NCBI GenBank assembly: GCA_951406725.2
Contig: OX597831.1
Span: 21,948,001 to 22,012,000 of the forward strand
Reading direction: 5' to 3'
Source: Octopus vulgaris
Taxonomy: Eukaryota
DNA: 64,000 bases
In this document: piece by piece, positions 5,544-60,415 of the stretch
How the letters are laid out: each line of letters starts with the position of its first letter
Numbering within the stretch: position 1 is the stretch's first letter
The notes under the pieces: model-generated
Database searches by the model: none
Told to the model about the DNA's origin: nothing
What the model saw: the letters and a program-made list of their open reading frames with translations, nothing else
Program-made: the position numbers and the translations under genes

Positions 5544-5585
5544 TTCAGTACCTGTTTCAGTCATTGTGACTTTTTCAACTGTAAC
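5544..5585 (-). ncRNA. Minimal type I hammerhead ribozyme motif (U3-A8 variant), inverted copy
   Basis: CAG-TTGAAAA-AGTCA(CAA)TGACT-GAAAC-AG-GTA-CTG; the stem III palindrome is broken by one substitution. Confidence 0.6.
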
Positions 5586-6047
5586 AATCAAACAATTAAA
5601 TTTAGAAAAATTAAAAGAAAAGTTTTTTAAAAGAATATTTGTATAGTGTTCAAATACAAATGGTATTTTCCTTGTTTCTGCCTGTCTCTGTCTCTCTTGT
5701 TTACTCTTGTGGGTTCGAGGTCGTTGTGAATTCTTGGCAGGGAAGACGAAGAAGAAGAATGTGGGAGTGCCATGGCACACCCACATCCTTCTTCTTCTTC
5801 TTCTTCTTCTTCTTCTTCTTCTTCTTCTTCTTCTTCTTCTTCTCCTTCTTCTTCTTCTTCTTCTTCTTCTTCTTCTTCTTCTTCTTCTTCCCTACCAAGA
5901 ATTCACAATGACTTCGAACCCACAAGAGTAAACAAGAGAGACAGAGACAGGCCGAAACAAGGAAAATGTTACTTGTATTTGAACGCTATACAAATATTCT
6001 TTTTAAAAACTTTTCTTCTAATTTTTCTAAATTTAATTGTTTAATTG

Positions 6048-6088
6048 TTACAGTTGAAAAAGTCACAATGACTGAAACCGGTACTGAA
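6048..6088 (+). ncRNA. Minimal type I hammerhead ribozyme motif (U3-A8 variant)
   Basis: CAG-TTGAAAA-AGTCA(CAA)TGACT-GAAA-CCGG-TA-CTG; 5-bp stem II, palindromic ACCGGT stem III, GUA cleavage triplet, short stem I. Confidence 0.72.
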
Positions 6089-6109
6089 ATCTGTTTTTTC
6101 TCCCTCGAA

Positions 6110-6880
6110 GAGAAGTTCTTGTCTGTCCTATATAATTATGTCCACAAACTGAACAAGTTATAAGACAAGTTAGATTCTCGAAAGCACACGTGAAGTTGAT
6201 TTTAATTGTGAACCTCTTTCCTTGTTTGAATTGGAATTCCGAGCCTTCCTTCAGGTTGGGGTAAGTTCCTCAGTTTGGGCGTCCACATTTTTTAACTATC
6301 GCTTTCGTGGTTCTTGAGTAAAGTTTCACATTTGTCAGAAGTCTTTTCGTTTTTGGCTCCCCAGGAAGCATTGGTAGATTGTGTAGAATAGTGTTGTATG
6401 CCTCATTGTTTCTAGTGTTGTGAGTTGATACATACAATAGTATTTTGAGATGACGTGTGGTGTTACGTTTGCTTTCCTTTAGTGTTTTAAGGCCTGGTTT
6501 TTTAGCACGTTTAATTTCGTCATCTATAAACGAGGGTGGATCGTCTCTCTCAATTAGTGTTGTTTTGAGGTCTTGAAGACGGAGGTCCCAAATATTTCCA
6601 TCAGACACTATTGTGCAAATCTTTTCGCTAAATTAAAGGAGATATTTTATTTGATGTGTTTCGTGTGACATGAGCTAAACAAAAGATATTGCTTCCTGTC
6701 TGTTGGCCTATGATAAACGTCAGTTACAATTTGGTTCTTGACTTTTTTATCATAATATCTAAGAAAGGGAGGTATTCTTTGCTATATTCCATTGTAAATT
6801 GAATGTCAGTGTTTAGTATTGATTTAGATTTTGAAAGTTTATCAGTAGTCTCATTCCAAATGATAAATCAGTCAGCCATA
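6110..6880 (-). pseudogene. Penelope-like element RT C-terminus/thumb, linker and GIY-YIG start, decayed
   Basis: ORF 6270-6608 (SDGNIWDLRLQDLKTTLIER...KKCGRPN) is homologous to ORF 11533-12075; downstream ITCSVCGHNYIGQT. Confidence 0.88.
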
Positions 6881-6930
6881 TAATAATAATAATAATAATA
6901 ATAATAATAATAATAATAATAATAATAATA

Positions 6931-7146
6931 ACCCTTTCTACTAAAGGCACAAGGCCTGAAATTTTGGGAGAGGGGACCAGTCAGTTACATCGGCCCCAGT
7001 GTTTCAATGCAACATAATTTATCGACATCGAAAGAATGAAAGTAAAGTCGACCACGGCGGAATTTGAACACAGAAGATAAAAGCAGACGAAATACCGCTA
7101 AGCATTTTGTCCGGCGCGCCAATGATTCTGCTAGCTTGCCGCCTTT
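6931..7146 (-). mobile_element. tRNA-derived SINE family B inside a (TAA)n tract
   Basis: Head GGCGGCAAGCTAGCAGAATC, B box GTGTTCAAATTCC, conserved central core shared with other copies. Confidence 0.8.
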
Positions 7147-7194
7147 AATAATAATAATAATAATAATAATAATAATAATAATAATAATAATAAT

Positions 7195-56811: not shown

Positions 56812-58631
56812 TTACCTGTGGACATCCTTGTTGCTTATTTTGATTATATATATATATAATCAAACAATGCTTCATGTAAACTTATATATACATATAATCG
56901 CTCTACTGTACTTTTGTTCTTGATCTTTCTTCTGATGAAGGACAGACATCCAAGACGTCGACTCGTTATTTTCTTTAAGCGTTAAACTAAATGCGTGTTT
57001 GAAAAATTGCCCTTTCTTAGTTACTATCTTTTTGCATCCATATACTTTATGAGGCATACACACACACACACTTGCATACAATGCACGTACGTGTATAACT
57101 GCATATATATATATATATATATATATATATATATATATATCATTCATATATATATATATATACATACATACATATATATACATATATATATATATATATA
57201 TATATATATATATATATATATATATATATATACATTCATCTATGCATATATATTTAGGTGCATCTCTTTCTCTATATATACATATGTGTGTATGAAAGTA
57301 TATAATTGTGATGAAAATATCGTATGTATGTAAAACTTCGTTATCGTTAGTAGAATATGATAAATATCTCTCAAGAAATAAGATTTTTAAATATACATTT
57401 TCATAAGCATGAATTAATAATAATTTTTGAAAGTGTAAAAAGAAATGAAATTCATTTTAAAAATAAATTGAAAACGAAGTCAATTTAGGAGCTGAGTGTA
57501 AAGTAAAATATATCTCAAGATACTGTGTGTATGTGAGTGTGTTTGTCAGTTTGCATGAGTGCGTGTACATTCACATACGTAGATATACATAAGAATACAT
57601 GCATATATACATTAACACACACACACACATACAGACATACATATATATTTATTTATACACACATATATATACATATATGAATATATATATATGTACCTAT
57701 ACATATATGTGTATATATATATATATATATATTATGCGTGTGGGTTTGTACATATATATACACACACACACACATATATATATATGTATATACATAATTA
57801 AGGTTCAGTTAAATTAGGTACATAAGTTGAAGCACCATGTCAGTACGGTATAATCCGCACAATTCGAAGTAAGGTGAATAAAATAAAATAACAGGGTGTC
57901 AAGTATTCATACAATACAACCGTTTCAATCGTCTCCATTTAATTGAACAATGCATGCATTACATTAATTTATATACAGTGCCTTCTTCAGATGATTAAAT
58001 AAATTTGTGTATGTGTATATGCATCTGTGTATACGTGCATGTGTGTATGTATACATTGAATGTTTTTACTGTGTATATATAAGTATATATAAATAAATAT
58101 ATAAGTAAATATAACTATATAAGTATATATGTTTCTAGTGTGTATACATAAGTAGATATAAATATGAATGTTTTTAGTGTGTATATATAAGTATATTTAA
58201 ATATTTATATGAAATTATATAAATATAATAATAAATATATAAGTATATATAAATAGCGTCTTTGTAAAGTTTTAGAAATTATAAATATTTTCATTTGATA
58301 TTTTTCGTCAAATATTTAAGAAGATATGTCAATCTGATGAAGCATCATTACATATTTAAACGGACTTGATTACTCCTCAGAAACTTCGTTTTATTACTGA
58401 AGCGAAGATAGCTGTAATTTATGAGATGCATCATTCGTTTGTATAAAATATTTAAATTGAATTGAAGTTATAATTGTTCAATTTATTGTTTTGTTATTTA
58501 TTTCTGATTTATATTTATATATTAATAAACTGTTTTATATTTTATACCTAGCTAAACTGTTATTATATATATGTATATAGATATATATATATATATATAT
58601 ATATATATATATATATACATATATATATATA

Positions 58632-58930
58632 TCTCTTATTATAAAAGGCAGATTTTATCTGCCTCCCTTTGGGAGTTATACAAATCTACAATATAGGATT
58701 TCTTCAATTACAATTTACCTTGCATTTTTAAGAGTACAATGCATCGCGTCATGCCAGGTCCAGTTTTTAAAATTTAAACTCCAGTTAAGCAAAATTTACA
58801 GAAAACTCACATTCTGGTGTGTGTGTCAAATGCTTTTCTTAGTCTGGTTTACACCACACGCAAACGCACACACACAGTGGGCAACGAATAAAATGAAACT
58901 AATTCACTTACTGTAGTGAGTGATTCTTTC
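58632..58930 (+). mobile_element. Probable Helitron 5' fragment
   Basis: Starts TCTCTTATTATAAAAGGCAG, like the other Helitron 5' ends; no 3' CTAG terminus found. Confidence 0.45.
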
Positions 58931-59142
58931 ACTCTGCCTCCCACTTCTTCTTTCCACACAGACACGCAAATATATAAATAAAATTGTAAGCTAACGTGCG
59001 TGTGTGTGAGTGGGTGTGTGTGGGTGTGCGCGCGTGTGTGTGTGTGAGGGTGCGTGTGTGTGTGTGTGTGTGCGTGTGCGTGAGTGTGTGACAGGAAAGT
59101 TTTTTTATGACGAATATAACACCTATATCCAAGTAGCAGAAA

Positions 59143-59730
59143 GATAAGACAGTAAGGTGTGATTTGAGGGAGATTTAGCTGCTATTTCTACCATGTCTAG
59201 CTGCCATGTAGGGGTCTCCCTCATAGGCTCATACATACATATATACATAGATAAGACAGTAAGGTGTGATTTGGGGGAAATTTGGCTGCTATTTCTACCA
59301 GGTCTAGTTGCCATGTAGGGGTCTCCCTCATAGGCTCATACATACATATATACATAGATAAGACAGTAAGGTGTGATTTGGGGGAAATTTGGCTGCTATT
59401 TCTACCAGGTCTAGCTGCCATGTAGGGGTCTCCCTCATAGGCTCATACATACATATATACATAGATAAGACAGTAAGGTGTGATTTGGGGGAAATTTGGC
59501 TGCTATTTCTACCAGGTCTAGCTGCCATGTAGGGGTCTCCCTCATAGGCTCATACATACATATATACATAGATAAGACAGTAAGGTGTGATTTGGGGGAA
59601 ATTTGGCTGCTATTTCTACCAGGTCTAGCTGCCATGTAGAGGTCCCCCTCATTGGCTCATATATATATACATACATAAGACAGTAAGGTGTGATTTGAGG
59701 GAGATTTGGCTGCTGTTTCTACCAGGTCTG
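59143..59730. repeat. 107-bp tandem repeat, ~5.5 copies
   Basis: Unit ATAAGACAGTAAGGTGTGATTTGGGGGAAATTTGGCTGCTATTTCTACCAGG...; inner copies nearly identical. Confidence 0.97.
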
Positions 59731-59799
59731 TTAGGCCTTCTCATGTAAACTCAAGCTTTCTCATGCCTTCAACATATGACCAAAGCAGAGAATGTATTC

Positions 59800-60010
59800 T
59801 TTTATTCTTCTGCTTTTTCCAGCCATTGGTCTGTGGCCATGCTGGGGCAATGCCTTGACGAATTGTAGTTTAATGAATCAACTCCAGTTTTATTTTTGTA
59901 AGCATTGTACTTATTCTATCTGTTTCCTTTGTCAAACCACTAGGTGACAGGGATGTAAACAAACCAGCATTCGTTGTCAAGCAGTGGTGGAGGACAATCA
60001 CAAGCACAGA
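59800..60010 (-). mobile_element. Diverged SINE family A 3' half
   Basis: Matches TGTGGCCATGCTGGGGCA...GTAAACAAACCAGCAT. Confidence 0.7.
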
Positions 60011-60090
60011 CACGCACACACACACACATACATGCATACACATATACACACATACATACATACATATATATATATGTGTGTATATATATA

Positions 60091-60415
60091 TTGCAGCGTG
60101 GAAGGTGTTTGTAAGCCATTTAAGAAACACACAAAAACCGTTACATTCACTTCAACATTTAAATTTAATTTGCCAAAATATTTTCGTCGCTTTCAGACCG
60201 CGACCTGTTCACTGACAAAAATATCGTGCTAACAGGTCGCGGTCTCAAAGCGACGAAAATATTTTCACAAATTAAATTTAAATGTTGAAGTGAATCTAAC
60301 GGTTTTTGTGTGTTTCTTAAATGGCTTATAAACACCTTCAACGCTGCAACTGTTTTCGTTCCAGCACACGATCTCAGATCAAGTCACTTGCTATGCAAGT
60401 ACATCTCTGTAACTA
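60091..60415. mobile_element. TA-bounded fold-back PLE-derived module (arms 60091-60209 / 60231-60349)
   Basis: ~119-bp near-perfect inverted arms with a 21-nt spacer; contains a hammerhead motif. Confidence 0.85.
60169..60219 (-). ncRNA. Minimal type I hammerhead motif (G3-C8 variant)
   Basis: TTTGTCA-GTGAACA-g-GTCGC(GGTCTGAAA)GCGAC-GAAA-ATAT-TT-TGGCAAA; 7-bp stem I, 5-bp stem II, AATATT palindrome. Confidence 0.7.

Follow-up and report, generated by a model that had tools for sequence, protein, structure and literature searches.

Candidate hammerhead ribozymes with natural variants of the core 3-8 pair in mobile elements of Octopus vulgaris

Known hammerheads of mobile elements and the octopus motifs

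In the hammerhead ribozyme, G8 acts through its 2'-OH and is held by pairing with base 3. Because this pair sets the position of the 2'-OH at nucleotide 8, its letters can be exchanged, and compensatory changes retain part of the activity. We have analyzed hammerhead motifs in a 64,000-nucleotide stretch of the Octopus vulgaris genome (contig OX597831.1, positions 21,948,001 to 22,012,000; hereafter the window), where this pair occurs in all four Watson-Crick forms. The motifs have minimal type I anatomy, their pair is fixed at the family level, and they lie behind open reading frames (ORFs) with a GIY-YIG domain or in tandem units. They are probably minimal type I hammerheads at the 3' ends of several families of Penelope-like elements (PLEs) and in one tandem retrozyme, likely cutting slowly as paired copies and likely tolerating any Watson-Crick pair at 3-8.

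The closest described systems are the minimal hammerheads of metazoan PLEs (Cervera and de la Pena 2014; PMC4209133), which cleave weakly in dimers and show no cleavage in monomers. These hammerheads share with the octopus motifs the type I layout, a palindromic remnant of stem III, the location at PLE ends, the occurrence of both lone and inverted copies, numerous families within one genome, the U3-A8 variant, for which ~1,300 matches are reported in Schistosoma, and, in the case of the G3-C8 motif, an extra base preceding G10.1-C11.1. Unlike them, several octopus motifs carry stem II inserts of 55-68 nt and palindromic inserts of 4-10 nt. By our reading, the 56 representatives in Fig. S3 of that article comprise 53 C3-G8, 2 U3-A8 and 1 U3·G8, with zero A3-U8 or G3-C8. 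U3-A8 is a known natural variant, published in 2011 and again in 2014 (PMC3088659, PMC4209133). Natural 3-8 covariation in Perreault et al. 2011 (PMC3088659) is limited to U3-A8; in the octopus genome, a family with thousands of copies has G3-C8 fixed. Engineered C3G/G8C ribozymes keep partial activity (PMC11167929, PMC8495972, PMC3884650), with partial rescue described in PMC8495972 and, for a PLE hammerhead, in PMC11167929; the pair can covary.

A second comparison is with non-LTR (long terminal repeat) retrozymes (PMC7229834; bioRxiv 10.64898/2026.07.22.740005). Two octopus families, that of the window motif at 42804 and a 359-bp family found elsewhere in the genome, likewise consist of tandemly arranged units that lack coding sequence and contain a single type I motif apiece. 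The 42804 unit, at 490 bp, is longer than the roughly 300 bp of published non-LTR retrozymes, and the 359-bp family differs from them in mixing C3-G8, U3-A8 and C3·A8 cores.

Judged from sequence, the octopus motifs are a known kind of motif with predicted cleavage and two natural core variants, A3-U8 and G3-C8, that are probably unreported and are fixed at the family level. No report of natural G3-C8 or A3-U8 hammerheads was found in the literature searched; an article of Lunse et al. from 2017, which is said by its title to treat small PLE-associated hammerhead variants and dimer cleavage, may hold them in its alignments. Among 25 articles listed by a literature search, a single one, on PLE clades (PMC8557442), treated hammerheads together with cephalopods.

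Motif detection and conservation of the 3-8 pair in families

A type I descriptor that placed no constraint on positions 3 and 8 was composed of stem I, N3-UGA-N7-N8-A9, stem II, GAAA, palindrome and UH. The window is AT-rich (34% GC), dense with microsatellites and transposon fragments, and part of a 2.8-Gb, 227-contig genome. All nine sites listed in the initial annotation were recovered at their positions, which confirms that observation. Six are intact minimal type I motifs with U4-G5-A6, A9, G12-A13-A14, A15.1-U16.1, H17 and with stems I and II ordered as in type I; the other three (5544-, 18289+ and 56725+; Table 1) are decayed. Site 5544- is moreover not independent evidence, since it is the inverted partner of 6048+. 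Nor do the nine sites form one family, as had been proposed; they belong to seven repeat families. Positions 3 and 8 are Watson-Crick in 6/6 intact sites (U3-A8 twice, A3-U8 once, C3-G8 twice, G3-C8 once), and literal C3-G8 occurs in just two. G10.1-C11.1 is found in four of the six, and an unpaired base between A9 and 10.1 solely in the G3-C8 motif.

Table 1. Hammerhead motifs and associated elements in the window
Feature	Position	Strand	Remarks
Decayed motif	5544..5582	-	No longer palindromic; inverted partner of 6051+
Minimal hammerhead motif, U3-A8 family a	6051..6086	+	Descriptor
PLE ORF piece	6270-6632	-	
Broken 3' PLE ORF	10902..12310, end approximate	+	Reverse transcriptase end, Cx4CxxC linker, GIY-YIG-type end
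Minimal type I hammerhead motif, A3-U8	12576..12612	+	Descriptor
Decayed family b relative	18289..18335	+	U3-A8 retained, stem II gone; 73-74% identity to 24843-
Minimal hammerhead motif, U3-A8 family b	24843..24884	-	Descriptor
LINE-like (long interspersed element) zinc-finger piece	34227-34709	+	Below Pfam cutoff
C3-G8 motif	42804..42910	-	Long stem II, 12-nt palindrome; in 490-bp non-coding tandem unit, about 42577-43125
C3-G8 motif	43504..43583	+	At 3' end of 3,624-bp tandem PLE; descriptor
Mariner-like transposase piece	51568-52194	-	Below Pfam cutoff
Decayed C3-G8 motif	56725..56815	+	G12 lost; older family
Helitron-like composite repeat	58632..60903, start approximate	+	TC start, hairpin and CTAG end; G3-C8 copy as passenger
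Inverted pair of PLE 3' ends	60091..60350	.	Contains the G3-C8 motif; second arm cut inside the core
Minimal type I hammerhead motif, G3-C8	60169..60219	-	Descriptor
PLE ORF piece	63205-63714	+	

Chance was assessed with 300 local dinucleotide shuffles of the window under relaxed and strict descriptors. The relaxed descriptor gave six window matches, all Watson-Crick at 3-8, against a shuffle mean of 0.51 (0.13 Watson-Crick), and the strict one gave four, one per pair type, against 0.08-0.18. The real Watson-Crick count was reached by none of the shuffles at any descriptor setting. This comparison, set beforehand, separates the window from shuffled sequence, and the six intact sites bear out the description of dispersed motifs with all four Watson-Crick pairs. 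On 464 kb of real sequence, seven decoy cores gave 0-3 matches versus 19 for the true core. When the palindrome was not forced, eight of nine distinct matches were palindromic and all nine Watson-Crick at 3-8, against 0.45 matches, zero palindromic, in shuffles. Screening for low complexity and capping the number of G-U pairs, both introduced after the first scan, removed one G-A match and microsatellite matches at 277-991; descriptors allowing one mismatch gave five weak extra window matches. Rfam returned no hammerhead row for the whole window in the best 150 of 421 rows, merely low-complexity rows of microRNA (miRNA) type, and none at E <= 10 for three focused stretches, where canonical C3-G8 motifs were missed as well.

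The G3-C8 motif has a 7-bp stem I, the extra base after A9, a 5-bp stem II with G10.1-C11.1, a weak A/U palindrome and a predicted cut after U17 at 60176. With the core free in the query, its family has 2,886 genome matches, and the reversed control has 0. By hand count, among the first 100 matches listed of these 2,886, the exact core is present in 87 and both G3 and C8 are kept in 91, across at least four loop-II subfamilies. G3-C8 contigs of four runs, from four organisms, hold no core variant at a level of at least 5%; the same contigs do vary in loop II, in stem I (G·U to A-U) and at C11.1 (to U). At locus L226, a GIY-YIG ORF (Pfam 25.1 bits, cutoff 22.6) precedes a copy of the motif by 997 nt; the arrangement is inverted, as is usual for PLEs, and no second, canonical hammerhead was seen in the same element at that locus. 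When the 40 matches of the family's ORF that fall in the range covered by the listing of the flanking motif were compared by hand, this motif lay 0.94-1.3 kb downstream in eight and 1.75-2.6 kb downstream in three. Open frames in copies of this family reach up to 1,025 aa. A 3.4-kb tandem considered as a possible full G3-C8 element was rejected: the stretch is duplicated locally, and its copy is a decayed G3·A8 one.

The A3-U8 motif has a 6-bp stem I, a stem II of 2-3 bp, a 6-nt palindrome and a predicted cut after C17 at 12606. Its core is identical in 84/84 genome matches, with all seven core positions free in the query; first-look candidate numbers of 925-1,641 were rejected as copy numbers, and the family is counted as these 84 exact-flank copies. 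In the window itself, a broken PLE ORF ends ~270 nt upstream of the motif. Pfam gave no match on the fragments of this ORF, and a sister-family ORF matches GIY-YIG just below the cutoff. Family a of U3-A8 has A10.1-U11.1, a 3-bp stem I and a predicted cut after A17 at 6083, and family b an 8-nt palindrome and a predicted cut after U17 at 24848. U3-A8 is kept in 31/31 anchored copies of family a and 35/36 of family b, copies chosen by likeness to the window.

A YIG-type ORF end lies within 1.6 kb of 7/40 A3-U8, 4/32 U3-A8a, 9/35 U3-A8b and 14/43 core instances of the C3-G8 PLE family of site 43497. The motifs sit in a terminal repeat 3' of a PLE ORF for reverse transcriptase (RT) and GIY-YIG endonuclease. 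The A3-U8 and both U3-A8 ORF ends have a Cx4CxxC linker and a YIG/YVG motif, and a linker of the CX2-5CxxC type, which in Neptune-type PLEs precedes the C-terminal GIY-YIG (PMC8557442), is present in all four ORF ends, that of G3-C8 included; we provisionally assign these four families to Neptune-type PLEs. The A3-U8 and both U3-A8 family proteins share 54-64% identity, which makes them sisters and not, as first proposed, members of several unrelated PLE families. The G3-C8-family ORF is distant from these three, with 22-36% identity in short stretches (E 0.02-0.3).

Metagenomes contain relatives of the G3-C8 ORF (31-48% identity) at 45 loci; a single-protein query had found none in metagenomes, and an alignment query found none in viral contigs. 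A first descriptor found motifs at eight of these 45 loci, in each case on the sense strand. A looser descriptor, run on the 36 loci with >180 nt downstream, found a clear motif in ten, 105-217 nt behind the ORF: seven C3-G8, two U3-A8 and one C3·A8, all with the extra base before G10.1-C11.1, like the G3-C8 motif. Since the relatives carry C3-G8 or U3-A8 there, G3-C8 occupies the place of their ordinary hammerheads.

Covariation was then followed beyond the window in 313 motif instances from 1.06 Mb, which form 24 clusters. With the six window-seeded clusters left out, 17 of 18 are Watson-Crick at 3-8 (12 C-G, 4 U-A, 1 A-U) and one is A-G, against 25-30% in shuffles, in agreement with the proposal of PLE and retrozyme hammerheads with 3-8 covariation; the sole unseeded A-U cluster is probably chance. 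These counts support a pair that covaries between lineages, its swaps being family characters. The window by itself carries no such signal, since its families are scattered and some windows should come to contain every form by chance: with 84 A3-U8 copies and ~1 G3-C8 copy per Mb, we estimate that roughly five windows should hold both. That the four forms meet in this one is luck, and the earlier inference from one-window covariation to selection for catalysis is not supported. A background sample of 400 kb, taken as evenly spaced stretches of two contigs, contained 14 C3-G8 and 1 A-G by the strict descriptor and 15 C3-G8, 4 U3-A8 and 1 A-G (n = 20) by the relaxed one, with no A3-U8 or G3-C8 by either.

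Positions 3 and 8 are best left unconstrained in searches for hammerheads. As predicted earlier, CUGANGA-based searches would miss the variants: ~2,600 G3-C8 copies in the genome, extrapolated from the 100 matches listed of 2,886, escape such patterns. Rfam does not report the variants either, and gave no match for the one G3-C8 copy submitted to it. The further suggestion of many uncounted ribozymes has to be scaled down to a modest share, a minority gain, because most motifs here are ordinary C3-G8 (15/20 in the relaxed 400-kb sample).

Proposed cleavage and competing explanations

If the motifs work as dimers, transcription through a tandem array would give an RNA with two motifs, whose palindromes would pair and complete stem III, as suggested by the PLE dimers of PMC4209133. 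Each motif would then cut after UH, and an RNA one unit long would be released for use by the element's RT and endonuclease. Selection would act on source elements, the window copies being mostly dead insertions. A palindrome standing in for stem III is what the unforced matches have (8/9), very weakly so in G3-C8.

Several results weigh against slow cutting of paired copies with any Watson-Crick pair tolerated. The G3-C8 palindrome has a predicted self-duplex energy of only -0.2 kcal/mol, and predicted homodimers use the palindrome in four of six motifs and bypass it in A3-U8 and G3-C8; for these two reasons activity of the A3-U8 and G3-C8 cores is the weak step. The exact flanking motif is absent behind 29 of the 40 G3-C8-family ORF matches, the most uniform subgroup included. 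No clear motif was found at 26 of the 36 metagenome loci (22 with none, four with poor matches that were set aside). In the 359-bp retrozyme family, C3·A8 mismatch copies form an amplified subfamily of their own (10 of 100 copies listed, one locus being a tandem trimer); nor does selection for pairing prove catalysis. Finally, in PMC11167929 insertion in vitro did not require cleavage, and no reads were found to stop at the cut site. Self-cleavage of the A3-U8 and G3-C8 motifs is termed putative here; should they cleave RNA, they would count as new variants from nature.

The strongest competing explanation, which we regard as unlikely, is that C3-G8 and U3-A8 are active and that A3-U8 and G3-C8 are near-silent relics or protein-binding folds, each swap having been fixed once in a cleavage-independent founder and then amplified. 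Each purine-3 swap is indeed one lineage, for which one event is enough, and the C3·A8 mismatch lineage was amplified too; the weak G3-C8 palindrome and the A3-U8 stem II of merely 2-3 bp fit as well, as do Naiad PLEs, which thrive without canonical hammerheads (PMC8557442), and the dispensable cleavage in vitro (PMC11167929). However, two independent purine-3 lineages both reached the exact complement and kept the other core bases, stems I and II and UH, and the G3-C8 core is constant over loop subfamilies and four organisms.

Also rather improbable is a reading in which cleavage takes place in monomers, or requires binding of the element's protein, and in which the palindrome is a short hairpin or remnant and not a dimer interface. 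An Anolis PLE hammerhead does cut only with its protein (PMC11167929), and the 12-nt palindrome of the 42804 motif could self-close stem III, but the palindromes of four window motifs are just 6 nt, too short for a stable hairpin, eight of nine unforced matches are palindromic, and copies stand in tandem arrays. That A3-U8 and G3-C8 are chance look-alikes in AT-rich repeats, selected by an expectant reader, is very improbable and already largely refuted by the shuffles and decoys: although each is one lineage, loose descriptors give a few chance matches (the A-U and A-G singles and the four poor metagenome matches) and no Rfam hammerhead model matches either, both lie behind PLE ORFs whose homologous families carry C3-G8 or U3-A8, and Rfam misses canonical C3-G8 motifs too.

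Beyond the dimer reading, we tentatively entertain, while leaning against it, that A3-U8 and G3-C8 represent the first natural hammerheads with a purine at 3 and a pyrimidine at 8 to be maintained by selection in mobile elements, with slow cores that would spare uncut RNA for retrotransposition and that would have been reached through mismatch lineages like C3·A8. If so, one genome displays the whole path of swapping a ribozyme's tertiary core pair. Natural family-level covariation of this pair, a pair that crystal structures and mutants had defined, is here extended from C-G/U-A to G-C/A-U. It bears on the open question of whether PLEs need hammerhead cleavage, since families with likely slower cores, one of them mismatched, were still amplified.

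Retrozymes and other elements

The 42804 family has a 490-bp period and up to four units head-to-tail, each with one type I motif, and its units contain no ORF of at least 150 aa. From this head-to-tail, non-coding layout it is classed as non-LTR retrozyme-like. The 359-bp tandem retrozyme family (L186, L016, L017; G000:C4:80857193-80857948) has 273 matches, of which 100 listed copies were counted by hand as 66 U3-A8, 24 C3-G8, 10 C3·A8 and 0 U3·G8; its C3·A8 subfamily is a possible intermediate of the 3-8 swap.

In the PLE family of site 43497, an open frame of 899 aa occurs elsewhere in the genome; Pfam gave no RT match on it, and its RT motifs were read by eye. In this frame (L181:5161-7860, minus strand), a long insert of low complexity separates RT from endonuclease; the tandem there has three units of 3,624 bp. 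An intact relative of the decayed 56725 motif occurs at locus L225, and a further decayed C3-G8 motif related to that family, outside the initial annotation, lies at 57909-57993 on the minus strand of the window.

The ~2.3-kb composite around the G3-C8 copy, which we take to be Helitron-like, is common to 30/30 loci compared. It appears young, with copies mostly 97-99% alike, and holds a 107-bp tandem array besides the inverted pair of PLE ends. The hairpin of that pair (predicted -203.8 kcal/mol) would bury the G3-C8 motif if both arms were transcribed. The idea that the G3-C8 site is a mere palindrome of a Helitron or a miniature inverted-repeat transposable element was rejected because 2,080 copies have a form absent from the composite and just ~6 of the 100 G3-C8 matches listed carry the composite's loop.

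Splice-site-like sequences adjoin two of the motifs. At L226:2495-2515, and also at L225, a branch-point and 3' splice-site-like sequence with 476 exact copies ends ~15 nt before stem I of G3-C8, and copies at four of five other loci begin exactly at that end. In U3-A8 family a, a pyrimidine-rich stretch ending in AG (6040-6053 of the window) directly precedes U3, so that the 5' strand of stem I could double as a splice acceptor. An intron end adjoining stem I is known from Drosophila Penelope (PMC4209133). A long hairpin (inverted repeat) at 29025-29183, with a weak score to a plant miRNA model, is probably a small inverted-repeat element.

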